Origin: a virus
Length of the DNA stretch: 64,000 nucleotides
Reading direction: 5' to 3' (one strand)
Virus record (IMG/VR): IMGVR_UViG_3300045988_167732
Coordinates: 32,001 to 96,000 of that record
Below the pieces are notes generated by a model that saw only the letters and a list, made by a program, of their open reading frames with translations, made no database searches and had not been told where the DNA came from. Shown here piece by piece: positions 13,103 through 27,159 of the stretch. Position 1 is the first letter of the stretch, and each line of letters begins with the position of its first letter. Position numbers and translations under genes: made by a program.

Positions 13103-13112
13103 TATTAAACTA

Positions 13113-13682: not shown

Positions 13683-13722
13683 TATTTTTTCGAATTTATC
13701 ATAAAAAGTGAGGAAATTAATC

Positions 13723-14034: not shown

Positions 14035-14389
14035 AAATTATTCTCCTGATGAAAAGTTCCTTACTCAAGAATTTACTCTAAAGAGAGATGAGTTAGGAGA
14101 CTGGCTTACAGACGCAATGTGGGAAGGTCTAAAAGATTGCTTTAGAACTCCTATTTGTGAAGAAATGATTTGTGAGAAAGATGTTGTCTATGAAAGAGTC
14201 GTTGGGCTTGTAAGAACTCTTTATGTTGACCCTGAAAATAATTTTGTAACATTTGAGGGGCTTTTTTGGCCCAAGTATTCTTCTAAAACTAAGGAAGAGT
14301 GGAATAATATTAAGCTTTCAAATGTTTCTTTTTATGTTATAGAAGAAGAAAATCCTACAAAGATTCCTGTGTCTTGTTTTACAGTGTGA
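14027..14389 (+). CDS. hypothetical protein
   Basis: ATG 14027 is in frame with track ORF 13976. The earlier part looks like out-of-frame overlap with the upstream gene. Confidence 0.65.
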   Translation: MVENYSPDEKFLTQEFTLKRDELGDWLTDAMWEGLKDCFRTPICEEMICEKDVVYERVVGLVRTLYVDPENNFVTFEGLFWPKYSSKTKEEWNNIKLSNVSFYVIEEENPTKIPVSCFTV

Positions 14390-14397
14390 GGTAAATT

Positions 14398-14832
14398 ATG
14401 TCTAAGAAGAGTTTTAGATATCGTAATTAGGTTACTTGTCCTCGTTGTCATCAAAGGTATTCAATTAACTCTAATTATGAATGTCCATATTGTCACACAA
14501 AATTCTATGATTTGAGTTTTGTTGATACAAAAACAGAAAATAGCTTACCTGTTTATGTTAGATATAAATGTAATGGGTATACTGGCTTTGCAGAAAATTC
14601 TAAAGAAGAGTATGATGTATTTATTACAGTAGCAACATTAGGGATTAATGTCGAAAACAGTTTAAGTCATAATTATGAAAATTTTTATGGTTTTCGAGAG
14701 GAACTTTGTGGAAAATATTTAAAAACTGTTTCTTTTAATGTAAAAGCTGAAATGGAAGCATTAGCTACTTTGGGAGAAAATGATGAACCTGTTCTCTTTG
14801 TAGCTGAAGCTGTTCCTAAGAAGAAAAAATAA
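14398..14832 (+). CDS. zinc-ribbon protein (1 in-frame TAG)
   Basis: ATG 14398 follows GAGG. CPRC..CPYC lies upstream of track ORF 14512 in the same frame, separated only by TAG. Confidence 0.7.
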
Positions 14833-14837
14833 GGTAT

Positions 14838-14913
14838 GCGTCTATAGTCTAACTGGATAAAACAAATCTCTCCTAAAGATTAGTTCTGAGTTCGAGTCTC
14901 GGTAGGCGTGCCA
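14838..14913 (+). tRNA. tRNA-Arg(CCT), CCA encoded
   Basis: Manual cloverleaf: anticodon loop CTCCTAA. Backbone is similar to tRNA-Arg(TCT) at 26998. Confidence 0.75.
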
Positions 14914-14926
14914 GAAAGGAAAAGAT

Positions 14927-15163
14927 ATGCCTAAGTGGTTGATTATTGCAATTATTTTAATCCTTAATCATATTTTGTGGATTTTCTTTGCTCGTGTAAT
15001 GAAGTGTATCGCAGAAGAAGATGAAGATTATTGGGACTATTCTGACCTACTTGACTCTTTTGGAGCATTTTTCTTTCCCTTATTCGTATTTATTTTTTCT
15101 GCTGCTAAGTTTGTCAGTAGGAAAGCTATTTATTCTGGCAAATTTGATGATAATAAAAAGTAA
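14927..15163 (+). CDS. small membrane protein
   Basis: Two hydrophobic segments. Confidence 0.65.
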   Translation: MPKWLIIAIILILNHILWIFFARVMKCIAEEDEDYWDYSDLLDSFGAFFFPLFVFIFSAAKFVSRKAIYSGKFDDNKK

Positions 15164-15245
15164 AGAAAATAAAAAATTTCTTTTATTAAACACTTGACAG
15201 ATTTAAATATCTGTGTTACCCTATAAGAGAAGTGAGGAACACAAT

Positions 15246-15533
15246 TTGGAACTTTCTAAGAATCCTTCAATTAGATTCCTAACAGTTGTAAATGGTAAGG
15301 CTTGGTGTGATAATGATACCGAAACTAAAAAGTTTAAGTTGACTAATACACCTCCTGAACCTTTAAAAAAAGCTGTAGATATTATTGCAGAAGATTTGGG
15401 GATTGATTTTCCTGTAAGTTCTGCTAACTATGTTGCTAAAGCATATAAAGATTTTCTTGTAAAACATTTTGATTCGTATCATCAGTATTATAAGAAGCTA
15501 CAGGAAAATTCGCAAGAAACAGATAAAGAATAA
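15246..15533 (+). CDS. hypothetical protein
   Basis: TTG start follows GAGGAA. The track start at 15213 falls inside the predicted promoter, so the start is uncertain. Confidence 0.5.
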   Translation: MELSKNPSIRFLTVVNGKAWCDNDTETKKFKLTNTPPEPLKKAVDIIAEDLGIDFPVSSANYVAKAYKDFLVKHFDSYHQYYKKLQENSQETDKE

Positions 15534-15544
15534 AGGAGAAGGTT

Positions 15545-16018
15545 ATGTCAGTGTCTATTATTCAAGGCGATGTCCTTAAGACTTCGGCAAAGTATATTTG
15601 TCATCAGGTTAATACCTTTGGCGTAATGGGCGCTGGTGTTGCTCTTCAAATTAAGAAGAATTATCCTCATGTTTATTTGGAGTATAATAAATTTTGTAGT
15701 TATCATGCTCCTGAAGAGCTTTATGGCAAAGTTCTTCGAATTGAAGAAAATAAAGATAAAGTTTTTCTTAATATGTTTTCTCAGATTGGTATTGGCGGAC
15801 CAAACGTAAACACCAATTATGAATATTTTCATGAATGTCTTCTTAAGATTCGTGAAATGATTCCTATTGGAGAAGAGATTGCTATGCCTTATATGATTGG
15901 ATGTGGTCTTGCTGGTGGAGATTGGTCTATTATTAGCGCAGATATTTCTGACACTTTAGGACTAAGCCATATTGTACGTTTGTATGATTTTAATGGCGTG
16001 ACTTCGGTGAAAAAGTAA
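15545..16018 (+). CDS. macro domain protein (ADP-ribose binding/hydrolase)
   Basis: IQGDVL..ICHQVNTFGVMGAGVA and IGCGLAGGDW are classic macro-domain motifs. Confidence 0.85.
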   Translation: MSVSIIQGDVLKTSAKYICHQVNTFGVMGAGVALQIKKNYPHVYLEYNKFCSYHAPEELYGKVLRIEENKDKVFLNMFSQIGIGGPNVNTNYEYFHECLLKIREMIPIGEEIAMPYMIGCGLAGGDWSIISADISDTLGLSHIVRLYDFNGVTSVKK

Positions 16019-16020
16019 TT

Positions 16021-16494
16021 ATGAAAGTTTGGCTTAAATATATAGATTGTTGGTATGAAGATTGTTCTCTTGATGCTGTAATGACAGAAGAGGCTATGCT
16101 TAAAGATAAACAGAGCTATTATCTTGAAGCGACTGTTAAACTTTCTGAGGATATTAAATATCTTACAAATAAAGTGGAAATTGCTAAAAAAGAAAGACAG
16201 CCTTATATTGAACAGCATAAAGAATATTGTCAGAGAAAGAATGAATTAATTGAATCTTTAGATTCATTAGCAACTCTTTCTGATGACCAGCAAAAGCATC
16301 TTTATATTTTACTTAAAGATGTAAAAGCAAAGTTGCGCAAATATACAAAAGAGATTGAAAGAAAAAGTTTTTATATCAAAGACTTAGAGCGAAAGATTGA
16401 AAAACTCAGAAACCAAACTGAGGAAGAAATTCTTGATTCTTATTTAAGAGAAAATCATATTACTTACGAGAGTTGGGAAGTTCTTGAGCATTAA
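16021..16494 (+). CDS. hypothetical coiled-coil protein
   Basis: 157-aa ORF, charged and helical in composition. Confidence 0.7.
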   Translation: MKVWLKYIDCWYEDCSLDAVMTEEAMLKDKQSYYLEATVKLSEDIKYLTNKVEIAKKERQPYIEQHKEYCQRKNELIESLDSLATLSDDQQKHLYILLKDVKAKLRKYTKEIERKSFYIKDLERKIEKLRNQTEEEILDSYLRENHITYESWEVLEH

Positions 16495-16559
16495 ATATTA
16501 ATGTAGTCTTTGCGAAATGTAGAGCTTGATACCATTCATGCGTGAGTGGTATCATATAT

Positions 16560-16704
16560 GCAGGATTAGTGTTAGCGGTTAGCACGACGGTCTTCCCCTT
16601 TAATAGTTTAATGTAAAACCAATATGAAAATATTGATGTAAGTTCAAATCTTATTTAAAGGTCCAAAACCGTAAGGGCGAGTTCGAATCTCGTATCTTGC
16701 TCCA
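16560..16704 (+). tRNA. tRNA-Gly(TCC) interrupted in the anticodon loop by a 69-nt tRNA-like element
   Basis: Acceptor GCAGGAT/ATCTTGC, D-stem GTGT/GCAC, anticodon stem ACGGT/ACCGT, T-arm GCGAG-TTCGAAT-CTCGT, discriminator T plus CCA. Removing 16597-16665 leaves the loop CTTCCAA. Confidence 0.75.
16597..16665 (+). ncRNA. nested tRNA-like element (acceptor, D-arm, GAAA hairpin, T-arm, TCCA end)
   Basis: CCTTTAA/TTAAAGG acceptor, GTTT/AAAC D-stem, CAATAT-GAAA-ATATTG hairpin, GTAAG-TTCAAAT-CTTAT T-arm, then T-CCA. Confidence 0.7.
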
Positions 16705-16726
16705 TCAAATTTTATTTAATAAACAC

Positions 16727-16755
16727 TTGACAAAGCGTTTGTTAGATGTTATAAT
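16727..16755 (+). promoter_or_regulatory. sigma70-type promoter
   Basis: TTTAATAAACAC upstream, then TTGACA-N17-TATAAT. Confidence 0.7.
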
Positions 16756-16782
16756 TCAAAATGTAAAAAGGAAGTACGAAAA

Positions 16783-17229
16783 ATGACTGATATTACCCCT
16801 ATCGTAGTTGCTGTAATTGGTTTGTGCTCTTTGATTTTTACAGTTGTCCTTATCCCTTATCTCAAGAAGAAGGGTAAGTTGGACGATGTTAATCATGCTC
16901 TTACTCAAGCAGAACTTATTCGTAAGTATGCTTTAATTGCAGTTAAGGCTGCTGAACAGATGTTCCCTCGGGAAATTGAAAAGCGTTTGCAGGAAGCAAC
17001 AAAGTATTTTAATCAGCAGATGGAAGCTCTTGGTATTACTCTTGATGCAGATGAAGTTCGTAAGGCTATTGAAGCCGCTGTTTATGAGGTGAATCGTGAA
17101 CTTCATGATGAAAAGTTGAAGGAGAGCCAGCTTCAGAATAGCAATCCTGTTCCTTCAAATGACAAGATTGATAACACTGGTAATGTTATCCCTGATGAAG
17201 ATACTGTAACTGAAGAAGCAGTAGGCTAA
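16783..17229 (+). CDS. membrane-anchored protein (possible LL-H-type holin)
   Basis: Single N-terminal TM helix, then a long helical charged region. The family assignment is tentative. Confidence 0.45.
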   Translation: MTDITPIVVAVIGLCSLIFTVVLIPYLKKKGKLDDVNHALTQAELIRKYALIAVKAAEQMFPREIEKRLQEATKYFNQQMEALGITLDADEVRKAIEAAVYEVNRELHDEKLKESQLQNSNPVPSNDKIDNTGNVIPDEDTVTEEAVG

Positions 17230-17365
17230 GATAATTTTCCTTTCTTATCTTAATAAATGTGTTGTTGAGACGCAATTACTCAGCGTCTATAAATAAGTTA
17301 AGTAACGTGAGGTTTGTTGGTAAAATACGAAAGTCCTTTTTGGAATGGAAAAACCAATATTATAT

Positions 17366-17443
17366 GGGAGTATAGTTCAACTGGTTAGAATGCCGCCTTT
17401 ACACGGCGGAGGCTTACAGGTTCGAGTCCTGTTATTCCCACCA
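17366..17443 (+). tRNA. tRNA-Val(TAC), CCA encoded
   Basis: Manual cloverleaf: anticodon loop TTTACAC, T-loop TTCGAGT. Confidence 0.8.
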
Positions 17444-17466
17444 TCAGACTTAAATTTAAACAAAAG

Positions 17467-17589
17467 TTGACACTCACAGCAAATTTATTTTATGTTTTTG
17501 GAATAACGTCGTGTAAGGTTCGACTCCTTATTAACAAATCCCTTGAGCAAGGAATAGTTAACCGTAGATGGCTAGAAAAAAAGTGTTAA
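17467..17589 (+). ncRNA. P1/ACAGCAA structured RNA, copy 1 (contains T-arm-like hairpin)
   Basis: TTGACACT..AGTGTTAA closing stem, CACAGCAA after the 5' arm, internal TAAGG-TTCGACT-CCTTA, A-run before the 3' arm. Confidence 0.65.
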
Positions 17590-17602
17590 GATTGCTCATT
17601 AT

Positions 17603-17688
17603 GCAGATATGGAGTAATGGTATCTCACGGCTCTGCTACAGCCGCTTACCGCAAGGTAATACAGGTTCGAATCCTGTTATCTGCGCCA
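17603..17688 (+). tRNA. tRNA-Ser(GCT), class II, CCA encoded
   Basis: Anticodon loop CTGCTAC, long variable arm, T-loop TTCGAAT. Confidence 0.8.
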
Positions 17689-17809
17689 CAGAATTTATTA
17701 TAGCTGCTCGTAATAAATTCGTAGTATTAGAAGCAGTAAAGGTACGAGTATGGTATCCGGCACGGGAATGGTCGTTAAGGGCGAGATAAAGCTGAGCTCC
17801 CTTTTATAT

Positions 17810-17928
17810 CCTCATTAGTGTAATGGTGCATTCTCGTTAACTGATGTTGAGTAAACACTAAGGTAGCTCCTTAGCGATAACAGCCACATTGGGAGAGGAA
17901 GTTGGTTCGAATCCAATTATGGGGTCCA
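17810..17928 (+). tRNA. tRNA-like gene with a ~45-nt insertion in the anticodon region; isotype unresolved
   Basis: Acceptor CCTCATT/TATGGGG (6 of 7 pairs), T-arm GTTGG-TTCGAAT-CCAAT, T-CCA end, candidate anticodon stem TCTCG/TGGGA flanking a 52-nt segment. Confidence 0.4.
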
Positions 17929-18530
17929 GTAACTACGATACCGTCTTATAAAGATGGAAGTTCGCCTAACAGATGGAGTATCGCTTAATGTTAGGATGTG
18001 TATATGGCGCAACTAAGTTCAGACCGTCCAGAACCTACAACCATATTAGCGGTGACAGCTTGGAGAGACAGCAAATATGCGGAACTGGTGTAGTAATAAA
18101 AATAGCCATGGACAATATTTTTATTATGTTTGGAGTTCGATTCTTCTCTGCCGCTCCAAAAGACAGAATGGTTAGATATTTCTTGATGTCTTTTCAAAAA
18201 ACAAGAAATCCGTAAGATATAGTACGAAACTTATCTTGGAATACAGTTTAGCTGGTTACAATGTATTCGACACTGAACCGCCCTCCAAGTCTGATGGACT
18301 GGTAACAATAGAAAGACCGCTGTTTATTCAATCGGGTGCGTTAAGCCCTTATACAATAACAAGACTGATGATGAAAATGACCAAGATAATTGGGTGCAAG
18401 TTTGCTGAAATATTTCTGTAGACCTCTCCCTAATCGAACCGAGGGCAGATAAGTGGAAAGCTGGTCTGTCAGTAGTCATTAGTTTTTGTTTTGTGTACCT
18501 TTAATAAAATAAAAATAAAAGGGTGTTTTT

Positions 18531-18851
18531 ATGGATTACATTGATAAGCAGTTTGCTAAACGTGGATATAAATTAGTACGTCAAAATGAATATGGCGCTT
18601 ATTATGAAAGAAAAGATAATAAGTTTAATTATACAAGTGAGCTTTGTATTATAGCTAAAGCAAATGGTAAACATCTTATTCAGTGTTATGATGCCCAAGT
18701 AGTTTATGGTCATCCTGAAAAGGATTCTAATAACTATCGTGTTATGAATCAAGTTGATGGAATTGATGCTTCTCTTTCTTTTTGGATTTGGTTAAAGTTT
18801 CATCAGCTTAAACACAAATATAAGTGGGATAAGGTGAAGAAACATGATTAA
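18531..18851 (+). CDS. hypothetical protein
   Basis: ORF after the SD-like AAAGGGTG. Confidence 0.7.
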   Translation: MDYIDKQFAKRGYKLVRQNEYGAYYERKDNKFNYTSELCIIAKANGKHLIQCYDAQVVYGHPEKDSNNYRVMNQVDGIDASLSFWIWLKFHQLKHKYKWDKVKKHD

Positions 18852-19116
18852 GAAATATATTAAGAAGCCAGTTACCATTGAAGCTATTATTTGGGATGGT
18901 GCTAATGAAGCTGAAATTATGGAATTCGTTGGTGCTCATTGCTGTGTTACTACTCAGCATACTATTAATGGTACTGTAACTAATCTTATCATTAATACTC
19001 TTGAGGGAGACCATTATGCTTCTGTTGGCGATTATATCGTTAAGGGAATTAAAGGTGAGTTTTATCCTGTTAAGCCTGATATTATGAAATTGACTTATGA
19101 TGAGGTTACGGAGTAA
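18844..19116 (+). CDS. conserved phage small protein (GDYIV..GE.YP.KPDI..TY motif)
   Basis: Overlapping start. The motif is recalled from other phage proteins of unknown function. Confidence 0.65.
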   Translation: MIKKYIKKPVTIEAIIWDGANEAEIMEFVGAHCCVTTQHTINGTVTNLIINTLEGDHYASVGDYIVKGIKGEFYPVKPDIMKLTYDEVTE

Positions 19117-19553
19117 TGGATACTTCTTTGTTTGAAATTGTAGGTCATTATTATATTTGGACTGGTGAAATTACTAAATTCCGAGTTGATGATATTCTAA
19201 GAGATAAAGAATTTAATTATTGGTATAAGATAGATTCTGAAACTATTGAATATCCTTGGGAAGTTCGCATTTTAGATGCTACTCAAGTTTGGACTAATGC
19301 TGATTGTTATCAAGATAGTACATCGGGTAAATGGATTTATAGATGTATTCCTTATGATGGTTTAATCTTTAGTCTCGAAGCTAATTCTATGACAGAATTA
19401 GTAGACCTTATTAGAGATTTTGTTACTCCTCCTGAAGACAAAGAAGAAGAACTTGTTGCAAGTTCTAATCATAGTTGCTTTACTAATCAGGTTTCGATGT
19501 GCGTAAGAAAAAATTCTGATAAAAATTCTAATAAAGACTTGACAAAGATTTAA
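19116..19553 (+). CDS. hypothetical protein
   Basis: TAATG overlap with the upstream gene. Confidence 0.7.
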   Translation: MDTSLFEIVGHYYIWTGEITKFRVDDILRDKEFNYWYKIDSETIEYPWEVRILDATQVWTNADCYQDSTSGKWIYRCIPYDGLIFSLEANSMTELVDLIRDFVTPPEDKEEELVASSNHSCFTNQVSMCVRKNSDKNSNKDLTKI

Positions 19554-19651
19554 AAGTGTGGTAAGATAAATATATCTTAAGAGAAGAGAAAAATAAAAAC
19601 TTCTCAAAAAGATAAAAAGTAAAAAAGCAAAAAGAAAATTTTAATAAGTGG

Positions 19652-19680
19652 TTGACATCTTAAAGATGATATGCTATAAT
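19652..19680 (+). promoter_or_regulatory. consensus sigma70 promoter driving a P1 element and tRNA-Glu
   Basis: TTGACA-N17-TATAAT, exact consensus. Confidence 0.75.
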
Positions 19681-19716
19681 AAGTGCATAAGTAAAACCTC
19701 CTGATTCATTAAAAAG

Positions 19717-19832
19717 TAGACTCTTACAGCAAATTCCTAAAAAGGTTAACACAATTGTCTGCAAAACAATCATTAGCGAGTTCGATTCTCGTCAGAGGGC
19801 GCTCTGTGGTGAATAATACGCAAAAGAGTCTA
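19717..19832 (+). ncRNA. P1/ACAGCAA structured RNA, copy 2 (T-arm plus closed acceptor-like hairpin)
   Basis: TAGACTCT..AGAGTCTA stem, TACAGCAA, GCGAG-TTCGATT-CTCGT followed by the CAGAG-GGCG-CTCTG hairpin. Confidence 0.7.
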
Positions 19833-19841
19833 GGTTAATAT

Positions 19842-19917
19842 GCTCGGTTAGTCAAGTGGTCTAAGACGGCGGGTTTTCATCCCGTAAACAAGAGTTCGAT
19901 TCTCTTACCGAGTACCA
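19842..19917 (+). tRNA. tRNA-Glu(TTC), CCA encoded
   Basis: Anticodon loop TTTTCAT, T-loop TTCGATT. Confidence 0.8.
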
Positions 19918-20092
19918 TTATTCAAATCAGAAATCCGTTCTTATGATAGTGAGAGTAAGTTTTATCGGATTTAAATGAGGGGAACTTAAATCTATCGAAG
20001 GGTTAAGAAATAATTGTTTGACGAAAAGTTGTTTCTCCTTTCTCTCTATCTGATATGAATAATTTCCTTTCTGTAAGATGATATTTATAAAG

Positions 20093-20224
20093 TAGAGACT
20101 AACAGCAATTTTGAAAATATGTTAAAAAGCCAAGCTCCCATTCTTCGGTTCGAATCCGAACGTCTTCAGTTGAAGTATGTAGCCAAGTGGTTTAAGGCAG
20201 GAGTCCATAACAACAATGTCTCTA
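20093..20224 (+). ncRNA. P1/ACAGCAA structured RNA, copy 3 (circularly permuted tRNA-like fold)
   Basis: TAGAGAC..GTCTCTA stem. Order of parts: GCTCC, T-arm TTCGG-TTCGAAT-CCGAA, short closed acceptor hairpin CTTC-AGTT-GAAG, D-arm-like AGCCAAGTGGTTTAAGGC, then GGAGT pairing back to GCTCC. Confidence 0.7.
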
Positions 20225-20232
20225 GTATTTAT

Positions 20233-20375
20233 GCCCGTGTAGCTCAGTAGGAAGAGCACTTGCCTTGATGGAGTAGTATAAGAAATACATCCTATAAAGG
20301 AAGGTGTGAGTTCAAATCTCATTTTCATCACCGTTAAGCAAGGAGTCGAGAGTTCGAGCCTCTCCACGAGCACCA
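20233..20375 (+). tRNA. tRNA-Lys(TTT) (alternative reading Asn-GTT) interrupted by a 67-nt tRNA-like element
   Basis: Canonical D and T arms, anticodon stem CTTGC/GCAAG, discriminator A plus CCA, one C-A mismatch in the acceptor. Removing 20267-20333 leaves CTTTTAA. Confidence 0.65.
20267..20333 (+). ncRNA. nested tRNA-like element (ACCG end)
   Basis: GATGGAG/TTTCATC acceptor, GTAT-AAGAA-ATAC D-arm, GTGAG-TTCAAAT-CTCAT T-arm. Confidence 0.65.
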
Positions 20376-20411
20376 ATAGCAGAAATGCTAATTTTGTAAT
20401 GACTTCAATAG

Positions 20412-20474
20412 TAGACGCTTGCAGCAATTTTAATTGTACTTATCTGTTAAATAAGAATGCATAAAAAGCGTCTA
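20412..20474 (+). ncRNA. P1/ACAGCAA structured RNA, copy 4 (minimal, 63 nt)
   Basis: TAGACGCT..AGCGTCTA 8-bp stem, TGCAGCAA, A-run before the 3' arm. Confidence 0.6.
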
Positions 20475-20503
20475 GCCCCTTTCTAAAAGGAGAAATTAAA
20501 AAT

Positions 20504-20588
20504 GGGTGAGTAGTGAATCGGCAAACACGGGAGTCTGTAAAACTCTTTCTTAACGGAGTAGAAGGGTCGGCACCTTCCTCACCCACCA
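20504..20588 (+). tRNA. tRNA-Tyr(GTA), class II, CCA encoded
   Basis: Anticodon loop CTGTAAA, long variable arm, unusual T-loop GTCGGCA. Confidence 0.8.
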
Positions 20589-20607
20589 CTTTAAAGGAGA
20601 AAATATT

Positions 20608-20778
20608 ATGGGTTTCATGGGAGAAATTTCAGAAGATATTGGTTGGAATGATTGTATTAATTATCTTCTAAAGAATGTTGATAAATTTCAAGAGACTTTA
20701 GATGGTGGAGCTTATGATTATTTTCCCGACGAAGAAATCAAAGAAGCTTTAAAGAAGCTAATTAGACCAGAAATCTAA
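20608..20778 (+). CDS. hypothetical small protein (56 aa)
   Basis: AAAGGAG SD 7 nt upstream of the ATG, TAA stop. Below the ORF-track size cutoff. Confidence 0.55.
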   Translation: MGFMGEISEDIGWNDCINYLLKNVDKFQETLDGGAYDYFPDEEIKEALKKLIRPEI

Positions 20779-20800
20779 TAAAATTTTTGTTTTAAAACTC

Positions 20801-20829
20801 TTGACAAAATGAAAATTTTGCGCTATAGT
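20801..20829 (+). promoter_or_regulatory. sigma70-type promoter
   Basis: TTGACA-N17-TATAGT. Confidence 0.7.
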
Positions 20830-20907
20830 AAAAATATGATAAAGATACAAATTTATTTGTAAGCTAATTGTTCATTTTTTATTGTTCATAAAAGCATTCC
20901 TTTCAGG

Positions 20908-21036
20908 TAGACTCTAACAGCAACTTTACAATCACAAATGCTATGGGCCTGTTTGTTGGAGGTTCGAATCCTTCACTCCCGACCATCGGGAGTTAGCTCA
21001 ACGGATAGAGCAACAGATTTTGTAAAAATGAGTCTA
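20908..21036 (+). ncRNA. P1/ACAGCAA structured RNA, copy 5: circularly permuted tRNA (3' half-ACCA-T-5' half)
   Basis: TAGACTC..GAGTCTA stem. GGAGG-TTCGAAT-CCTTC T-arm, ACTCCCG-A-CCA, one T, then CGGGAGT-TA-GCTC..GAGC D-arm and a U-rich anticodon-like segment. The acceptor is a perfect 7 bp. Confidence 0.7.
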
Positions 21037-21099
21037 GTCAATAAATTAATAAATTGACGCTCCTATTTTTCTAATAGGCAAATATAAATTCCTTTCAAG

Positions 21100-21215
21100 T
21101 AGACACGTACAGCAAAATTACTTGATGCTTTAATATGGAAAATTAACGATAAGGTTCGACTCCTTAATCTTCTTTTGAAGATGCGTGGTTGCTGGAAATC
21201 AAAAAAACGTGTCTA
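21100..21215 (+). ncRNA. P1/ACAGCAA structured RNA, copy 6 (T-arm plus closed acceptor-like hairpin)
   Basis: TAGACACG..CGTGTCTA stem, CAGCAA pairs with TTGCTG, TAAGG-TTCGACT-CCTTA followed by ATCTTC-TTTT-GAAGAT. Confidence 0.7.
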
Positions 21216-21225
21216 GGTTAAGTAT

Positions 21226-21310
21226 GGCTGAGTGGCGAAATTGGCAGACGCAGTTGCTTCAAGTACAACCCTCGAAAGAGATGTGGGTTCAAGTCCCACC
21301 TCAGCTACCA
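21226..21310 (+). tRNA. tRNA-Leu(CAA), class II, CCA encoded
   Basis: Anticodon loop TTCAAGT, long variable arm, T-loop TTCAAGT. Confidence 0.75.
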
Positions 21311-21852
21311 AAGTTACAGTTCAATTGGCAGATAGCGAATGTAACTTATATTAAACTGCCCGATTCAGCAAGGATGGCTAAAGCCTTGTCGGTGTTCCAT
21401 ATATTTGAACTCATCTTTAGTCCGTTAAGCTAAAGCCCCAACGCCCGTCCGAAGTCTTGGAGTAGAGAACAAGTGAATGGTTCTCGAACGCAAAGTAAGC
21501 TGTCACAAGCTGAAAAAGGCTATAAGCCGCACATGGGTAGAACACAGATATATGGTGAGAGATGTTAGGGTGCGAATGTAACATCAAAAACCTACAGCGA
21601 AAAGCTATACGGAGAAGTCTGTGCCGTGTTTACGGGAATAGGTAGTTGCGTACCTATTCAAACAAAAACTCTGATTACTGCAACTAAATCGGGGTAGGTA
21701 TTGAGGTTATGGGTCATGTAACCTTAAAACACAATAAGCCGAGCATACTGCTTATTGCTCCTAACAGGTGGTGCTGAGGATGAACAACAAAAGCCAAGTT
21801 ATAGAGTTCTTGTAAAAAACTCTGTTGCTATTTGAAAGAATAGCTCAATTAT

Positions 21853-21928
21853 GGGCCTGTAACTCAGTTGGGAGAGTGTCTGCTTTGCACGCAGGAAGTC
21901 GCAAGTTCAAGTCTTGTCAGGTCCACCA
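21853..21928 (+). tRNA. tRNA-Ala(TGC), CCA encoded
   Basis: G3-U70 pair present, anticodon loop TTTGCAC. Confidence 0.85.
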
Positions 21929-22384
21929 TAAGAGTTAGTTGCTCTCTTAGGATAAAAAAAGCACCGTATTAACACGAGTTTACGATAATTAACTGGCCCT
22001 CGTCTGCGGGTAAACAGCAGTTTTAGGCTACTATAAGCCGAAGTTTTAAGGGCAGTTTCTTTAAAAAACATGCATATGGTTTTTCTTGTTATCTCTTTTT
22101 TATCCTAAAAATAGACGTAGCAGCATGACTTGAGGCTATACATCAAGCTCCTGAGACCGAAGAAAAAAAGCTCCCTGTATCGTCAATGGGAAAATAATCT
22201 ATCTGTTCCGTAATAACAGGTGGGAGGGAGTATTTTAGGTCGGCAAGACCACGAGAGGATAGCGCTGTTCTCTCAACCCTTTGCAAAGGTTGCTGATGGG
22301 TTTTCCAAACGGATGTGGAAATTAAATGAATGGAAGGGTATAATTCAGCCCAAAATCAGCTCTAAAATTCAAGAAAATATATTT

Positions 22385-22462
22385 GGGTGTGTAGTTCAGT
22401 CTGGTCAGAACACTTGACCGTTAATCAAGGAGTCGAAGGTTCAAATCCTTCCATACCCGCCA
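22385..22462 (+). tRNA. tRNA-Asn(GTT), CCA encoded
   Basis: Anticodon loop CCGTTAA, discriminator G. Confidence 0.8.
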
Positions 22463-22815
22463 AAAGTGGAGAGTGTAGGTTCGAGTCCTGCCCCGCTCGT
22501 GGGAAACCCTTGCAGGAAGCTGTTAGGTACAGCGCCACTTAGAATTTCTTTCACCTTATTACGCGAAATATGGGATTGAGATGTTGCTTTAGTCGGGTTC
22601 TTTTACAGCAGAAAATAAGAACGCACCTGTTTAATTGGGTTTTTCAGCACAGTAAAAACAAGAAAAACCTCGGTTGTTTAGAAATTTTCTTCTGATATTG
22701 AACGAAAACAAATAGAGAATTCTCTCATTGCAATGCCGAAAGGTAGTAAGTTACGAATTTACCCATGATAAATTACGAACTTGCTACCGAGTAGGGATAA
22801 GAGAGAATTAAACAT

Positions 22816-22891
22816 GCTTTGGTAGCTCAATTGGTAGAGCAGTGGACTGAAAATCCACGTGTAGCTAGTTCGATTCTGGCCTAAAGCACCA
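22816..22891 (+). tRNA. tRNA-Phe(GAA), CCA encoded
   Basis: Anticodon loop CTGAAAA. Confidence 0.85.
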
Positions 22892-22892
22892 T

Positions 22893-22976
22893 TGCTGGCG
22901 AGTGAAACGGATATATAAATCACGCTTGGCTCATACCCAAGTAATAGTGGGTTCGACTCCCATGCTTCAGCAACCA
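22893..22976 (+). tRNA. tRNA(CAT) (Met or Ile2 type) with extended acceptor stem and large D-loop
   Basis: Anticodon arm CTTGG-CTCATAC-CCAAG, T-arm GTGGG-TTCGACT-CCCAT. Two extra nucleotides between the T-stem and acceptor imply an 8-9 bp acceptor. Confidence 0.55.
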
Positions 22977-23000
22977 AAAAACAAAAGGAAGTAAATTCTA

Positions 23001-23306
23001 ATGACTGATTTTAAGACTTACATTTATTAGACAGCAAGTAATAAAAAGTTTGTTTATAGATGTCCTCATTGTAATAAAGGGATAATGCAAGTAGTAGAAA
23101 CAAAAATTGCTAAAAATGAAACTAATATTTTATCTTGGAATTATACTTGCCCAGTTTGTAAGAAAACGATTGTCTCTATTGAAAAAGATGGTTGTTCTTG
23201 CTTTAAGAGTGTGTTCCCTCCAATGACTCAAATTAGTGATAAAGAATTTGCTGATATTAAAAAGAATGTAGGAGAGAAAGATATTTATCTGTTCTCTGAA
23301 ACATAA
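23001..23306 (+). CDS. zinc-ribbon protein (1 in-frame TAG)
   Basis: ATG 23001 follows AAAGGAAG. In frame with track ORF 23085 across a single TAG. CPHC..CPVC. Confidence 0.7.
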
Positions 23307-23313
23307 AATAAAT

Positions 23314-23408
23314 GCTAGCGTACAGAAGTGGTCATAACTGCCATCACTTGAAATGATGTGTGACGGCTTGTATCCGTCTCGTGAGTTCGAATCTTACCGC
23401 TAGTGCCA
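23314..23408 (+). tRNA. tRNA-Ser(TGA), class II, CCA encoded
   Basis: Anticodon loop CTTGAAA, long variable arm. Confidence 0.8.
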
Positions 23409-23427
23409 TGGAAAAAGGAGATTAAAA

Positions 23428-23943
23428 ATGAGCAATAATAATTCAATCGAAATCGAACGTAAGTTTTTAATCTCTGGTTTTCCTAAAGTCGATTTTGATG
23501 AAGTCGGAATTGTTAAAACTATCTATATTAATATCAAATATAATTCTGATGGAAAAATTTTACAGGAAATTCGTATAAGACGTTGGTTTGAAAGTGGCAA
23601 AGGTTATCGTCCAGATGCTCTTACTTTTAAATCTGGTGGTACTTTAATTCGTACCGAAATTGAAACAAATCTTACAGATAATTCTTTGTTTGACTGTTTT
23701 AATGAACTTGGTTATAATCCTATTGTAAAAGATTATAGAGGTCTTTACAATAATGGTTGTTTAATTGAATTTAATCTTGTAGATGGCGGAACTGATACTG
23801 CTTTCTACTATGCCGAAGTTGAATTCAATTCTGAGGAAGAAGCTAATAGTTTTGTTTGGCCTTTTCCTGAAGTATTTATTGAGGAAGTTACTAATAAGCT
23901 TGAATATAAGATGGCAAATTATTGGAAACGTACTCGTGGATAA
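23428..23943 (+). CDS. CYTH-domain protein (triphosphate tunnel metalloenzyme)
   Basis: N-terminal IEIERKF carries the ExExK signature. Confidence 0.75.
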   Translation: MSNNNSIEIERKFLISGFPKVDFDEVGIVKTIYINIKYNSDGKILQEIRIRRWFESGKGYRPDALTFKSGGTLIRTEIETNLTDNSLFDCFNELGYNPIVKDYRGLYNNGCLIEFNLVDGGTDTAFYYAEVEFNSEEEANSFVWPFPEVFIEEVTNKLEYKMANYWKRTRG

Positions 23944-23966
23944 GGACTTTTATTAGTCCTTTATTT

Positions 23967-24098
23967 GCTTTCGTGGCTCAATCGGTAGAGCGCCTGATTT
24001 GATAGAGTGACAGAATGTATTGTCTTAGTTTGCAAGTTCAAGTCTTGCCTTTATCACCAGTAATCAGGATGTTGCAGGTTCGAGTCCTGTCGGAAGCT
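23967..24098 (+). tRNA. tRNA-Thr(TGT) interrupted by a 59-nt tRNA-like element; host CCA not encoded
   Basis: Acceptor GCTTTCG/CGGAAGC, anticodon stem CCTGA/TCAGG. Removing 24001-24059 leaves TTTGTAA. Confidence 0.75.
24001..24059 (+). ncRNA. nested tRNA-like element (ACCA end)
   Basis: GATAGAG/CTTTATC acceptor, GACA/TGTC D-stem, 7-nt linker, GCAAG-TTCAAGT-CTTGC T-arm, A-CCA. Confidence 0.7.
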
Positions 24099-24161
24099 GG
24101 GAACAAGGTCAAGCCTTCACGTTGGCGTTCCTGTTTAAACTAATTGACTAAAAGAGGTTTT

Positions 24162-25037
24162 ATGAAATATTGTCTCAATTGTGGTAAAGAATTAAATAAA
24201 CAAGTAAAAAAATTTTGTGATAATAAATGTTTTGTTGAATATTAGTATCACAAATATATTAAAAACTGGAAGCTTGGTAAAATTACAGGGGTCGTTGGTT
24301 TTGGGGTTAGTAAATATATAAGAAGATATTTATTAGAAAAGTATAATTATTCTTGCCAAGAATGTGGTTGGAATAAAATTAATCCTTATACTAATAAAAC
24401 ACCTTTGGAAATTCACCATAAAGATGGAAATTATTTAAATTGTTCAGAAGAGAATTTAGCTTTGCTTTGCCCCAACTGTCATTCTTTAACAGATACTTAT
24501 AAATCTTTGAATAGACCAGAAATGAGAAGAGATAGAACAAGATACAATCAAAGACCCAATCCTTTTTTTGATGAATTAAATTGTGATAAGAAAGAAAAGA
24601 AAAAATATTTTTGTCCGGTTTGTGGCAATGAAATAACCCGCAAGGCAAAATTATGTCTTAATTGCAGAAAAAAGGAAAATTTGAAAAACTCTAATAAACC
24701 CTCTAAAGAAATTTTAATGGAAGAATCTAAAAATTTTGTCTCTTATGTAAAATTAGGGGAAAAATATGGGGTATCTGACAATACTATTAGGAAGTGGTTC
24801 TCAAGTTACGATTTGCCTCTTCCTAAAAGGGAAAAAGCAGAATATAAACCAAAAGTCTACCATCCAGAATATTAGGTTTATACAACAAGAAAAACAGCTA
24901 CAGGATGGGAAAAATACTTAAAATTGGGTCAGCATAAAATTGCTCGATATGTTCCCAACCATACTGTTTCTCAAATAGAAGATTACATAAAAATTTTTTA
25001 TGATGAAGCTGTGAAAAAAGGAATTATTAATAAATAA
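24162..25037 (+). CDS. HNH homing endonuclease (2 in-frame TAG)
   Basis: N-terminal CLNCG..C..C ribbon, HHKDGN..N..NL..LCPNCH HNH core. The frame continues through TAG at 24873 to TAA 25035. Confidence 0.8.
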
Positions 25038-25068
25038 TAACAAACAAAAAAGAAATTTTAAAAAGTAC

Positions 25069-25097
25069 TTGACAAGATGAAAAGTATATGTTATACT
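25069..25097 (+). promoter_or_regulatory. sigma70-type promoter
   Basis: TTGACA-N17-TATACT. Confidence 0.7.
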
Positions 25098-25129
25098 TAA
25101 GATGTGGTTGAGAGATACAACCTAAAAAT

Positions 25130-25205
25130 GCGGCAGTGTGGAAGCGCTATCCAGCCTACGCACCGAACGTGGGAGTCGCCAGTTGGAATCTGGTCTGCCG
25201 CTCCA
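25130..25205 (+). tRNA. tRNA-Arg(CCG)-like, non-canonical (A33, 6-bp anticodon stem)
   Basis: Acceptor GCGGCAG/CTGCCGC, D-arm TGGA/TCCA, CCTACG-CACCGAA-CGTGGG, T-loop TTGGAAT, T-CCA. Confidence 0.5.
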
Positions 25206-25341
25206 ATTCCTTAGTAGTTTAAAAGACGATAAACAAATTAAAATACCCTTCAGTCGGAAAGCCTCTAATGAGTATAGAATGGCACTCAAGTAGGGAGTTC
25301 TGGATGGGCGAATCGGAACCACCAGCTAAGGAAAAATATAT

Positions 25342-25416
25342 AGGGGTATAGCCAAATGGTGAAGGCAGCGGTCTTTGACGCCGCCATTAAAGGTTCGAAT
25401 CCTTTTATCCCTGCCA
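25342..25416 (+). tRNA. tRNA-Gln(TTG), CCA encoded
   Basis: Anticodon loop CTTTGAC, T-loop TTCGAAT. Confidence 0.8.
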
Positions 25417-25445
25417 TAAGCAACAATTCAAATTATCGTTTAACG

Positions 25446-25564
25446 TAGACGCTTACAGCAAACAATAATAAAATCAAATTCTATAAAAAAGATTTATGGT
25501 ATTGTTCCTTGCTAATTAGTTTATGATGCTTTCATGATTCTCCTTTGTTAGTATTATGCGTCTA
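25446..25564 (+). ncRNA. P1/ACAGCAA structured RNA, copy 7
   Basis: TAGACGC..GCGTCTA stem, TTACAGCAA. AGCAAACAATA can pair with TATTGTTCCTTGCT. Confidence 0.6.
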
Positions 25565-25572
25565 GTTTATAA

Positions 25573-25639
25573 GTGCCGTACCAAGGTTGGAGCTACTCGA
25601 CGGAGAACTTAAGAAGGGGTTCGAATCCCCCACGGTGCA
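25573..25639 (+). ncRNA. tRNA-like minihelix RNA (acceptor plus T-arm, no clear anticodon arm)
   Basis: GTGCCGT/ACGGTGC acceptor, T-loop TTCGAAT. The central 35 nt does not fold as D and anticodon arms. Confidence 0.45.
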
Positions 25640-25696
25640 AGATTGAATTGTTTGGAGTACTACAAACAAGATGGTAAGTTATTGATGATTTAAAAG

Positions 25697-25759
25697 TAAA
25701 CCCTTACAGCAATTTAATTATTTAATTTTTGCTTGAAAAAAGATTAAGGATAGGGTTTA
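25697..25759 (+). ncRNA. P1/ACAGCAA structured RNA, copy 8 (minimal)
   Basis: TAAACCCT..AGGGTTTA stem, TACAGCAA. Confidence 0.6.
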
Positions 25760-25779
25760 GTCCTGTAATGTTGAAAAAG

Positions 25780-25865
25780 TAGACACATACAGCAATTAAA
25801 ATAAAAATACTGGGAAATATATTTAATTGGAATAAATACTTTTTTTAGATTTTTTATTGTGTCTA
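25780..25865 (+). ncRNA. P1/ACAGCAA structured RNA, copy 9
   Basis: TAGACACA..TGTGTCTA stem, TACAGCAA. Confidence 0.6.
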
Positions 25866-25876
25866 GGATTTTATAT

Positions 25877-26010
25877 GCTGATATAGCTCAATAGGTTAGA
25901 GCTTCCGACCACGAAATAGCTTAAGAAAAGCAAAGGATGTAAGTTCAAATCTTACTTTCGTGACCATTATAATCGGAGGGTTGAGTGTTCGAGCCACTCT
26001 ATCAGCACCA
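25877..26010 (+). tRNA. tRNA-Ile(TAT) interrupted by a 57-nt tRNA-like element
   Basis: Canonical arms, anticodon stem TCCGA/TCGGA, A-CCA end. Removing 25910-25966 leaves CTTATAA. Confidence 0.75.
25910..25966 (+). ncRNA. nested tRNA-like element (ACCA end, no anticodon arm)
   Basis: CACGAAA/TTTCGTG acceptor, GCTT-AAGAA-AAGC D-arm, 7-nt linker, GTAAG-TTCAAAT-CTTAC T-arm, A-CCA. Confidence 0.75.
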
Positions 26011-26107
26011 TTTAAATACAGGTAGCATTGGAGTAATTAACCAATGAGAAAATAATGCCCAAACATTAAGCTGTATTTTTTAAAAATTCTTTTGGGAGGA
26101 TTAAAAA

Positions 26108-26905
26108 ATGATTGAGTTAACTGAAGAACAGAAAAAATTAGAATTGTCAAATGATAATTGGAAAATTGTTCCAAATTGGTCAAGATATGAAGTAAATTAG
26201 TATCGGATTCTACGAAACAAAAAAACCAAACATATTTTAACATCAAAAGATAATAAGAGAGGATATTTAATTTATCTTGTTCTTAGAGATGATGATAACA
26301 GAATTCACATTTTGTCAAAACATAAAGCTGTAGCTTTGGCATGGGTTCCCAACCCCTAGAATTTACCTATTATAAATCACAAAGACGAAGACAAATTAAA
26401 TTGCTTTTATTAGAATTTAGAATGGTGTACAAGCAGTTATAATAACAGTTACAACGGGACAGGTAAAAAGAGAAGTGAAAAATTTAAAAAGACTTTTTTT
26501 GTTTATGATTCTGAGCGGAATTTAATAGAAAAAAGAAAAGGCATAAATGAATTTTGCGCAGAAAATAATTTATCTTCTCGGTGTGCTAGTTCTATTTTAA
26601 AAAAGAATAGTGAAGAAGAAAAATGTTATAGTATAAAAGGATTTTATCTTTTTTACGAACAAATAACAAAAGAAGATTTTTTATAGAGAAAGCAAAAAGT
26701 TTTTAATATAGGGAATTTAGGCAAAAAGAAATTTTCTAAAAAAGTTTATCAATATGATTTACAAAACAATCTTCTTCAAATTTATTCTAGTGTACATGAA
26801 GTTAAAGAGAAAAATGATTTAGCTACAACGTCAGTAATAAGTGCTTGTTGTAGAAATAAAATAAAAACTGCTTATGGATATAAATGGAGTTATGTTCCAT
26901 TATAA
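26108..26905 (+). CDS. HNH/NUMOD-type homing endonuclease (4 in-frame TAG)
   Basis: W..VPNWSRYEV, GY..YL, VHR-like KHKAVALAWVPNP, NHKDEDKLN..NLEW, C-terminal AYGYKWSY. All lie in one frame broken only by TAG. Confidence 0.8.
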
Positions 26906-26919
26906 ACAAAAAAATAAAG

Positions 26920-26987
26920 TAGACTCTTACAGCAATTACTTAGAGACTTGTGATTTGGGATTACATATGTTTTGAAAAATGAGTCTA
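26920..26987 (+). ncRNA. P1/ACAGCAA structured RNA, copy 10 (minimal)
   Basis: TAGACTC..GAGTCTA stem, TTACAGCAA, A-run before the 3' arm. Confidence 0.6.
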
Positions 26988-26997
26988 GCTTTATTAA

Positions 26998-27153: not shown

Positions 27154-27159
27154 GATATT

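Follow-up and report, generated by a model that had tools for sequence, protein, structure and literature searches.

A tRNA-shaped insert in the anticodon loop of a tRNA-Lys(UUU) gene from a human-gut phage, and a possible route for its excision

An interrupted tRNA-Lys gene and its nested insert

Can a tRNA gene whose anticodon loop is split by a second, tRNA-shaped sequence still supply a decoding tRNA? This question is raised by positions 20233-20375 of a 64,000-nucleotide (nt) stretch of viral DNA (positions 32,001 to 96,000 of IMG/VR record IMGVR_UViG_3300045988_167732; hereafter, the window), where a tRNA-Lys(UUU) gene contains a 67-nt insert that folds as a cloverleaf of its own. The window is part of a 220,795-bp scaffold from a human faecal metagenome (ENA ERZ28659889), and the locus belongs to a large, roughly 220-kb human-gut phage with a G+C content of 33%, whose tRNA array spans 13.4-27.2 kb of the window. 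Collectively, the comparisons described here indicate that the locus is almost certainly an interrupted, functional tRNA gene, and conservation of its exons and of related genes suggests that the insert is very probably removed at the RNA level. The components of the gene are as follows.

20233-20266, plus strand: 5′ exon of tRNA-Lys(UUU), host nt 1-34, with the 5′ strand of the acceptor, the D arm, the 5′ strand of the anticodon stem, and C32 U33 U34 (ARAGORN with introns allowed; aligns with intact Lys alleles)
20267-20333, plus strand: 67-nt tRNA-like intervening sequence (Rfam tRNA, 41 bits; cloverleaf as the minimum free energy (MFE) fold; pairing across six variants)
20267-20273 with 20323-20329, plus strand: acceptor of the insert
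20276-20288, plus strand: D arm of the insert
20290-20301, plus strand: mini hairpin of the insert
20306-20322, plus strand: T arm of the insert
20330, plus strand: A73 of the insert
20331-20333, plus strand: CCG tail of the insert
20334-20375, plus strand: 3′ exon of tRNA-Lys(UUU), host nt 35-76, with U35 U36 A37 A38, the 3′ strand of the anticodon stem, the variable loop, the T arm, the 3′ strand of the acceptor, A73, and CCA

The host has an acceptor GCCCGTG/CACGAGC with a C3-A70 mismatch, a D arm GCTC-AGTAGGAA-GAGC, an anticodon stem CTTGC/GCAAG, a T arm GAGAG-TTCGAGC-CTCTC, and an encoded A-CCA end. The interruption follows CTT of the anticodon loop, between nt 34 and 35; the joined exon junction (20266|20334) reads ...CUUGCCUU-UUAAGCAAG..., and the spliced loop is CUUUUAA. 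With introns allowed, ARAGORN reports a tRNA-Lys(ttt) at 20233-20375 with a 67-nt intron, whereas with default settings it misses this gene, one of 4 among the 20 tRNAs of the window that are overlooked in this way (Lys(UUU), Gly(UCC), Thr(UGU), and Ile(UAU)). The 76-mer spliced in silico is again called tRNA-Lys(ttt), 76 nt, and shows the features of the tRNA family (RF00005), namely, a 7-bp acceptor, D and T arms, a 5-bp anticodon stem, a 7-nt loop with U33 and a purine at position 37, and a discriminator followed by CCA. The 143-nt precursor is predicted to retain the host cloverleaf. An earlier, sequence-only reading of the stretch had described the host arms, anticodon stem, A-CCA end, acceptor mismatch, and insert coordinates, all of which are present, and its proposal of a Lys(UUU) host with a nested tRNA-like element is borne out both by the intron mode of ARAGORN and by the intact tRNA-Lys genes found in the syntenic position of related phages (see below).

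Taken alone, the insert scores 41 bits against RF00005 (gathering score, 29; E = 7.8e-6 in a 17-kb search and 5.8e-5 in a 126-kb search), and the MFE fold of the isolated insert is exactly the cloverleaf described here. Its acceptor, GATGGAG/TTTCATC, comprises seven pairs, two of them G-U, and is accompanied by a D arm GTAT-AAGAA-ATAC and a T arm GTGAG-TTCAAAT-CTCAT, with A73 and then CCG at the end. The anticodon arm is replaced by a hairpin, TCCT-ATAA-AGGA, of 4 bp with a 4-nt loop; the earlier reading had recognized this hairpin and drawn it one pair too short, as CCT-ATAA-AGG. Because a 5-bp/7-nt anticodon arm is lacking, the D loop AAGAA has no G18 G19, and default ARAGORN calls no tRNA within the insert, we refer to it as tRNA-like rather than as a tRNA.

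Across six variants of the Lys insert, 100% of the 20 pairs are kept, compared with 38-59% in controls with slid partners. In three pairs of the hairpin both partners differ (TCCT/AGGA to TTTC/GAAA), whereas at four pairs the only change is to or from G-U. Given that the variants effectively represent only two lineages, this covariation is modest evidence, which is reinforced by compensatory changes in other insert families and by the same architecture in approximately 22 families. The ACCG end of the window insert is, to judge from related inserts, derived from an ancestral ACCA such as that of L148-L152 (L numbers denote the sequences compared). In a chance control on 185,579 genomes, the sequence-only pattern gave 26 chance matches, none of them nested and none with more than 4/7 acceptor pairs; the only two matches in the same scan with 7/7 acceptor and 5/5 T-stem pairs both lie inside tRNA anticodon loops. 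A chance origin of the insert structure is excluded.

Intact and interrupted alleles

The window contains four interrupted tRNA genes (Gly, Lys, Thr, and Ile), each of which is the sole copy for its anticodon in the array. The three sister genes of tRNA-Lys are as follows.

16560-16704, plus strand: tRNA-Gly(UCC) with a 69-nt tRNA-like insert at 16597-16665, tail TCCA, between nt 36 and 37
23967-24098, plus strand: tRNA-Thr(UGU) with a 59-nt insert at 24001-24059, tail ACCA, between nt 34 and 35; this insert has no anticodon arm
25877-26010, plus strand: tRNA-Ile(UAU) with a 57-nt insert at 25910-25966, tail ACCA, between nt 32 and 33 (Rfam, 43.2 bits on the insert)

Two groups of relatives provide the closest comparisons: L001-L015, an IMG/VR clade of 100-216-kb contigs with proteins 87-98% identical, and L016-L023, a more distant clade. 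In these and other sequences, candidates were located by a 7-bp acceptor stem plus T arm and deleted, and ARAGORN was asked whether a normal tRNA remained. Sequence-only pattern scans covered viral, genome, and metagenome collections, and the totals given below count 2.79 Mb of retrieved phage DNA. A comparison with 50,697 isolated or deposited phages gave no DNA relative, near or remote, the only matches being to ordinary tRNAs, and the nearest protein relatives of the window phage among deposited phages are only ~37% identical.

The slot between tRNA-Glu(ttc) and tRNA-Tyr(gta), the upstream flanks of which are 97-98% identical, is occupied by an intact tRNA-Lys(ttt) in L001, L002, L005, L006, L008, and L009, by a gene with the 67-nt insert in the window, L007, and L015, and by a gene with an unrelated 50-nt insert, one loop position further, in five other relatives. 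The exons of the interrupted and intact alleles are ~90% identical, the figure that also holds for the spliced window gene and the intact L002 allele, and they share C3-A70; since intact alleles carry it too, this mismatch is no sign of decay. The choice of register can also be settled from these relatives. In the window, a one-base shift would give an Asn(GTT) anticodon, against which the sequence-only reading had cited an intact tRNA-Asn(GTT) gene at 22385; ARAGORN confirms that gene. The Lys insert family occurs in two other Lys exon alleles in which the tails, CAA (L015) and CCA (L148-L152), make the boundary unambiguous, and there the shifted register would give an ATT anticodon. Because only the UUU reading gives a sensible loop in these unambiguous relatives, and in view of the synteny of the slot, the Asn(GTT) register is ruled out, and the original preference for Lys(UUU) stands.

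For three other hosts, the comparison is exact. Without 16597-16665, the Gly gene of the window equals the intact L008 and L012 genes at 76/76 positions, with flanks 97-98% identical; the spliced Gln gene of L007 equals the intact one of L008/L013, and the spliced Thr gene of L011 equals the intact one of L008. Therefore, the unit that is gained or lost extends from position +1 of the acceptor stem of the insert to the third nucleotide past its discriminator. Two alternative ARAGORN readings of the Gly host, Trp(CCA) and selenocysteine (SeC(TCA)), which shift the intron by 3 nt, were rejected given the discriminator U73 and the identity of the spliced sequence to intact Gly(tcc).

In total, related and unrelated phage DNA yielded 131 instances, corresponding to 52 distinct inserts of 49-121 nt, which fall into ~22 families and interrupt hosts with 10 different anticodons. 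Interrupted Gly, Lys, Thr, Ile, Gln, and Glu genes are found in L001-L015, and interrupted Gln genes in L017, L018, L020, L021, and L023 of the distant clade. Further Lys, Glu, Gly, and Ile insert families were recovered from independent lineages by the viral, genome, and metagenome scans, as were the following hosts.

L084 and L165: interrupted tRNA-Asp(GUC)
L093: interrupted tRNA-Leu(UAA), an incidental find
L266 and L230: interrupted tRNA-Asn(GUU)
L147: interrupted tRNA-Pro(UGG)

Every family has 7/7 acceptor and 5/5 T-stem pairs and a T loop TTCAAAT or TGCAAGA, and some of the families besides that of Lys have no anticodon arm at all. Thus, the Lys insert is one member of a widespread, apparently undescribed class. 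A full-text literature search found no description of tRNA-like introns in tRNA genes, although most subscription journals lay outside its coverage and a prior description is not excluded.

Objects of other kinds were encountered alongside these inserts. A conserved tRNA-like RNA is encoded at positions 17810-17928 of the window (also L001:4298-4416 and L008:5307-5425). It ends in TCCA, its acceptor is CCTCAT./.ATGGGG, and its T arm is GTTGG-TTCGAAT-CCAAT; 46 nt without tRNA-like form, including the hairpin CTAAGG-TAGCT-CCTTAG, are inserted in its anticodon region. Depending on the relative, the intron-containing tRNA that ARAGORN reports at this locus is Val(cac), Ala(agc), or Ile(aat). This RNA is an object of a different kind from the tRNA-like inserts. 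So is the interruption in L093:792-910, on an unrelated phage contig, where a tRNA-like gene (Rfam tRNA, 40.6 bits over 119 nt) has an insertion of ~45 nt that is not tRNA-like. In addition, free-standing mini-tRNAs of 65-66 nt (L038:3992-4056, L051:4161-4226 on the minus strand, L142:683-748, and metagenome loci L209, L216, L223, and L314) share the form GTCATAA...TTATGGC-T-ACY, with a truncated anticodon arm and no CCA tail, and lie between ordinary tRNAs rather than nested in them; they might have given rise to the nested elements or serve some separate function. Within the window array, positions 22901-22963, directly after tRNA-Phe, give a partial tRNA match (27.6 bits, below threshold) where L006 has a tRNA-Met(cat), and probably represent a decayed tRNA gene.

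Intact and interrupted alleles form a mosaic among phages that are 95-98% identical. Together with the presence of one insert in three Lys exon alleles and of differing inserts in one allele series, this mosaic indicates gain and loss as a discrete unit, and the intron acts as an optional and probably mobile element. In the window and L001-L015, open reading frames (ORFs) for HNH endonucleases lie within 700 nt downstream of 7 out of 43 interrupted tRNAs but only 2 out of 222 intact ones (Fisher 5e-5, for approximately four independent events and with no phylogenetic correction). In the window, an HNH endonuclease ORF begins 64 nt downstream of the interrupted Thr(UGU) gene and an HNH/NUMOD endonuclease ORF 98 nt downstream of the interrupted Ile(UAU) gene, and no HNH ORF is found within 700 nt downstream of the Lys gene. 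The combination of an insert with a free-standing HNH gene resembles 'collaborative homing', which we regard only as a lead.

Other selfish genes of the window deserve mention. Five ORFs are open only when TAG is taken as a sense codon (7448-8389, 10115-11020, 24144-25037, 26105-26905, and 38821-39303, with 9, 7, 2, 4, and 5 in-frame TAGs, respectively); the first four encode homing endonucleases (GIY-YIG, LAGLIDADG, HNH, and HNH/NUMOD-like), and most other genes are free of TAG. In conjunction with a suppressor tRNA(CUA) at 27079-27153, the TAG codons in endonuclease ORFs suggest TAG-gated expression of selfish endonucleases. A UvrD-like helicase gene (3680-6388) has an intein-like segment (Intein_splicing) between its N- and C-terminal helicase domains, and a TnpB/Cas12f-like (OrfB_IS605) gene at 62183-63502 points to an IS200/IS605-type element.

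Mobility raises the possibility that the interrupted genes are dead. If the inserts were selfish insertions or recombinants of tRNA genes, their hosts would be pseudogenes, or would supply tRNA halves and the mini-tRNA, for instance as decoys against host defences that target tRNAs, and mature tRNA-Lys would not be produced. The allele mosaic, the association with HNH genes, and the similar free-standing mini-tRNAs in other phage arrays (L038, L051, and L142) are in keeping with this scenario, but the exons are undecayed; all 131 instances regain a 7-nt loop with U33, and position 37 is an unpaired purine in almost every family, the Asp host with its U37 being an exception. Landing only in anticodon loops, and always so that the loop frame is restored, is unexpected of a gene-killing element, and death of the interrupted genes would deprive the array of its only copies for four anticodons. 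The strongest constraint comes from tRNA-Ile(UAU), of which the window and L001-L015 have, without exception, interrupted copies, with unrelated inserts at 32|33 or 36|37. The seven alleles of its exons nevertheless form a 100% paired cloverleaf with compensatory changes at 12 of 21 pairs, a result matched by 0 out of 500 shuffles; the two halves covary perfectly and are thus under selection as a single tRNA. Such joint selection is hard to explain unless the halves are joined. Exon conservation thus disfavours the pseudogene and decoy scenarios, which we consider improbable.

Alternatively, the chimeric RNA might stay unprocessed and serve as a Y-RNA-like or scaffold RNA that binds a TROVE/Ro-like protein of the phage. 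The window does encode such a protein (DUF2828+DUF7788, 39375-41144), two circularly permuted tRNA-like modules lie at 20931-21029 and ~20130-20220, the latter directly upstream of the Lys gene, and in L076 a TROVE gene comes after an interrupted Lys gene. However, 20233-20375 itself has no match to YrlA (RF02553), intact and interrupted alleles are interchangeable, and selection has acted as on ordinary decoding tRNAs, with regard to anticodon loops, identity elements, and the slot shared with intact alleles, all of which makes this explanation highly unlikely. The two modules are of interest in their own right: in both, the order is T arm, acceptor hairpin closed by a CCA or GT loop, and D arm, and 20931-21029 gives the only YrlA-like match (41.4 bits, below the gathering score of 69). 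Considering the TROVE-like protein and the YrlA-like modules together, the phage probably has its own Ro/Y-RNA system.

Boundaries of the insert and candidate processing enzymes

If the exons are joined, what defines the cuts? Over the 52 distinct inserts, the junctions fall at 32|33 (n = 2), 34|35 (n = 12), 35|36 (n = 17), and 36|37 (n = 21) of the host, and none of the 52 at 37|38, the site of archaeal and eukaryal introns. By contrast with this spread, the excised segment invariably begins at +1 of the 7-bp acceptor stem, ends 3 nt past the discriminator, and leaves behind a loop of 7 nt, the one variation being the CCA-less L076/L318 family, in which it ends after the discriminator. A ruler based on the host cannot explain the spread of junctions, whereas the tRNA ends of the insert explain every case; hence, it is the insert that determines the boundaries.

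The nucleotide at -1 is a pyrimidine in 22 out of 22 families (product of chance expectations, 7e-4); for example, the insert follows U34 and not G35 in Thr(UGU), and U34 and not A35/A36 in Leu(UAA). Position +1 is invariably G or C, and 42 of the 52 distinct inserts have a CCA tail, with CCT, CCG, CAA, and TCA as exceptions, such that C74/C75 are nearly invariant and position 76 is variable. The sole family without a CCA tail, L076/L318, comes from a phage whose own tRNA genes have no encoded CCA, and its boundary directly after the discriminator is the canonical RNase Z site. The 3′ boundary thus appears to follow the logic of tRNA 3′ ends. The determinants of bacterial RNase P include U(-1), a G/C pair at +1, the 12-bp stack of acceptor and T arm, and pairing of C74/C75 with the P15 loop. 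The features of RNase P and RNase Z substrates present in the inserts are the 12-bp acceptor plus T-arm helix, the T loop (U54...A58), N73-CC, and the pyrimidine at -1. Cleavage by RNase P and RNase Z leaves a 3′-OH and a 5′-phosphate, that is, a nick that an ATP-dependent RNA ligase can seal without end healing. In the phages that encode CCA, the boundary falls behind position 76; the RNase Z of T. maritima cleaves just downstream of an encoded CCA, and RNase E can make CCA ends directly (PMC7479834).

These features suggest the following route. The precursor would fold as one cloverleaf nested inside another; host RNase P would cut at +1 of the intron, leaving a 5′ exon with a 3′-OH, and a 3′ tRNA endonuclease of the RNase Z type, or some other endonuclease able to produce CCA ends, would cut after intron position 76, leaving a 3′ exon with a 5′-phosphate. 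The acceptor and anticodon stems of the host would hold the exons together while a phage RNA ligase of the T4 Rnl1 family closes the anticodon loop; the outcome would be a 76-nt tRNA with the loop CUUUUAA and, as a by-product, the freed mini-tRNA. RNase P is the probable enzyme at the 5′ site and Rnl1 the probable sealing enzyme; the assignment of an RNase Z-like activity to the 3′ site is more tentative and somewhat less likely to be right than wrong. As a whole, a tRNA-shaped intron excised by tRNA end-processing nucleases, with its exons joined by a phage Rnl1-type ligase, is the most likely of the mechanisms considered, with chances that we judge to be evenly balanced.

Elsewhere in the array (26998-27153), the CCA end of a tRNA-Arg(tct/UCU) at 27078 abuts, without spacer, the first nucleotide of the suppressor tRNA(CUA) at 27079; here, one RNase P cut would yield both the 3′ end of the former and the 5′ end of the latter, and such sharing of a cut by adjacent tRNAs counts in favour of the proposed route. 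A phage-encoded RNase P RNA was not detected by Rfam in 126 kb, and no RNase Z-type protein was noted among the proteins scanned, which represent a minority of the genome. Excision by an RNase III-type enzyme, via a helix that spans the junctions of the Lys precursor, was considered and rejected: the sites are staggered with 5′ rather than 3′ overhangs, and the helix is absent in other families.

No RNA ligase gene is found in the window or within 10 kb on either side. In contig IMGVR_UViG_3300045988_165223 (L144; the same contig as L010, which has four interrupted tRNAs), kinase and ligase genes are adjacent, and this contig is placed one step further upstream, with an anchor gene 99% identical. 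The ligase (L144:5784-7142, 452 aa) matches PF09511 (RNA_lig_T4_1) with 47.5 bits (cut-off, 28.3), has the motif KLDG (KxDG), and matches the NCBIfam T4 RnlA family TIGR02308, below the equivalog cut-off. The adjoining 321-aa polynucleotide kinase belongs to AAA_33 and resembles the kinase domain of Clostridium thermocellum Pnkp (4GP6, 2e-12), and its HD/HDIG phosphoesterase domain is a weak match (22.6 bits; cut-off, 27.6). Fifteen contigs share the ligase at 94-100% conservation; among them are the 13 contigs of L001, L002, L004-L012, L014, and L015, which have interrupted tRNAs. T4 Rnl1 and Pnkp are the classical enzymes for resealing tRNA-Lys broken in the anticodon loop (jumbo-phage review, PMC7824862). 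The ligase and kinase genes show a capacity for joining, not proof of it.

It should be noted that several observations weigh against this route. We infer splicing from conservation and all RNA processing from DNA. Folding of the whole precursor reaches only z = -2.25, and an alternative helix across both junctions is predicted for the Lys insert. The ligase was read in relatives, its position in the contig of the window, ~12-13 kb upstream of the window start, being given by synteny only; moreover, T4-type Pnkp/Rnl1 cassettes commonly serve large phages in repair against host defences, and so their presence is not specific evidence for splicing. At the 3′ site, CCA is an inhibitor of many RNase Z enzymes. 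The tail of L084 is ACCA although the local tRNA genes lack CCA, and the Lys insert tails CCG (window) and CAA (L015) differ from CCA; therefore, a simple rule equating inserts with local tRNAs is imperfect. Finally, an adjacent kinase with a weak HD domain equally fits processing via 2′,3′-cyclic phosphate and 5′-OH ends.

This last point leads to the main rival, in which the same intron would be cut out by a dedicated, possibly phage-encoded metal-independent endonuclease that leaves a 2′,3′-cyclic phosphate and a 5′-OH, after which the kinase (with a possible HD phosphoesterase) would heal the ends and Rnl1 would seal them. T4 mends PrrC-cut tRNA-Lys by such healing and sealing, and yeast and plants splice their tRNAs in the same way. 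That the Rnl1-family ligase has as its neighbour a Pnkp-type kinase with a weak HDIG domain suits this rival, as do a metallophosphoesterase (L025:8629-9240) and the dual-specificity phosphatase-like protein (12292-12819) nearby, and a 3′ cut after CCG, CAA, or CCT is not an obvious RNase Z site. Nevertheless, the ~94 kb of annotated sequence yields no candidate endonuclease, defence against host anticodon nucleases accounts independently for the healing enzymes, and the tRNA shape, -1 pyrimidine, G/C at +1, C74/C75, and boundaries at +1 and 76 (or 73) are exactly the determinants of RNase P and 3′ processing. We thus regard healing and sealing as unlikely.

An intron of a conventional type would be a degenerate self-splicing group I intron or a bulge-helix-bulge (BHB) intron cut by a splicing endonuclease. 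Group I introns are indeed the known introns of bacterial and phage tRNA anticodon loops, and BHB introns occupy varied positions in archaea. Yet at 49-121 nt (67 nt in Lys), the inserts are too small for a group I core (>~200 nt), and Rfam intron families are unmatched in 126 kb at gathering thresholds and in 12000-29000 at E up to 1. In the Lys precursor, by inspection, the junctions lie in an asymmetric 3-nt/8-nt internal loop that leads from the host anticodon stem to the insert acceptor; since there is no 4-bp central helix at the junctions, a BHB cannot form. No splicing-endonuclease domain was seen among the proteins scanned, and the lack of junctions at 37|38 points in the same direction. 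Of all the explanations considered, a conventional intron is the least credible, to the point of being negligible.

Just upstream of the tRNA array, the window encodes a Thg1-like 3′-5′ nucleotidyltransferase (11010-11834; PF04446, 93.5 bits) and the dual-specificity-phosphatase-like protein (12292-12819), with a PARP-like protein (8391-9650) and macro-domain proteins (6636-7355 and 15545-16018) near the array; the group looks like a cluster of RNA/ADP-ribose conflict genes. Its 5′-adenylylation chemistry made the Thg1-like protein a candidate joining enzyme, which was set aside as speculative; within the limited flanks available, it is not near nested tRNAs in other lineages. Upstream of the window on the same scaffold, L025:4356-7233 encodes a Pol-beta-like nucleotidyltransferase (phrog_388), an NAD-dependent DNA ligase, and then a NADAR protein, and may be a further nucleic-acid repair module.

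Relation to known tRNA introns and repair systems

Collectively, these results allow us to propose, as a suggestion that currently falls a little short of an even chance, a third mechanistic class of tRNA introns in gut, rumen, and other phages, which would be cut by RNase P and by RNase Z or another CCA-end endonuclease and joined by a phage Rnl1-type ligase, and which would be mobile, partly with the help of free-standing HNH homing endonucleases. If this is true, T4-type Pnkp and Rnl1 would gain, beside their anti-defence role, a housekeeping role in the biogenesis of phage tRNAs, the ligase having so far been known only for damage repair; an intron could be defined purely by tRNA mimicry and be cut by enzymes of every cell; and the inserts would represent a new type of mobile element as well as a natural case of RNase P/Z-programmed excision with re-ligation, relevant to RNA engineering. 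Because standard annotation misses the interrupted genes, phage tRNA repertoires, codon-usage arguments, and recoding analyses are biased.

The inserts share features with several known systems, without coinciding with any of them. Like group I tRNA introns, they occur in bacterial-type anticodon loops at variable positions, are optional between strains, and are often accompanied by homing endonucleases; however, a group I intron is a ribozyme that splices itself, has a conserved core, and exceeds 200 nt, whereas the inserts are tRNA-shaped and measure 49-121 nt. The BHB introns of archaea and eukaryotes (EndA with RtcB or Trl1) likewise depend on proteins for excision near the anticodon, have their exons ligated, and rely on the tRNA body to hold the exons, but the phage inserts have neither a BHB nor a 37|38 junction, are bounded by their own tRNA-like ends, and would be expected to leave 3′-OH and 5′-phosphate rather than cyclic phosphate and 5′-OH ends. 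The repair of T4 by Pnkp and Rnl1 also concerns tRNA-Lys(UUU) with a single break in the anticodon loop, and the phage clade has an Rnl1-family ligase beside a polynucleotide kinase; in T4, however, the break is inflicted on the mature tRNA by a host defence nuclease, whereas in the phage studied here it would be programmed within its own tRNA gene.

In other systems the resemblance lies in the tRNA-shaped module. In MALAT1 mascRNA and in mitochondrial tRNA punctuation, such a module is the cutting signal for RNase P and RNase Z, and the anticodon arm is dispensable, but the flanks are not rejoined, whereas those of the inserts are tRNA halves that need ligation. YrlA and engineered 'tRNA scaffold' chimeras similarly have a tRNA-like module or cargo nested at a helix end; YrlA, however, is permuted and not excised, and scaffolds keep their cargo, whereas the inserts are unpermuted, have CCA tails of the free-end type, and sit in decoding tRNAs. 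Finally, in split and permuted tRNA genes (Nanoarchaeum and Cyanidioschyzon), separately encoded halves also pair before processing, but there BHB processing acts on separate or circularised transcripts, whereas the halves of the phage tRNA are colinear and separated by a tRNA-like spacer.

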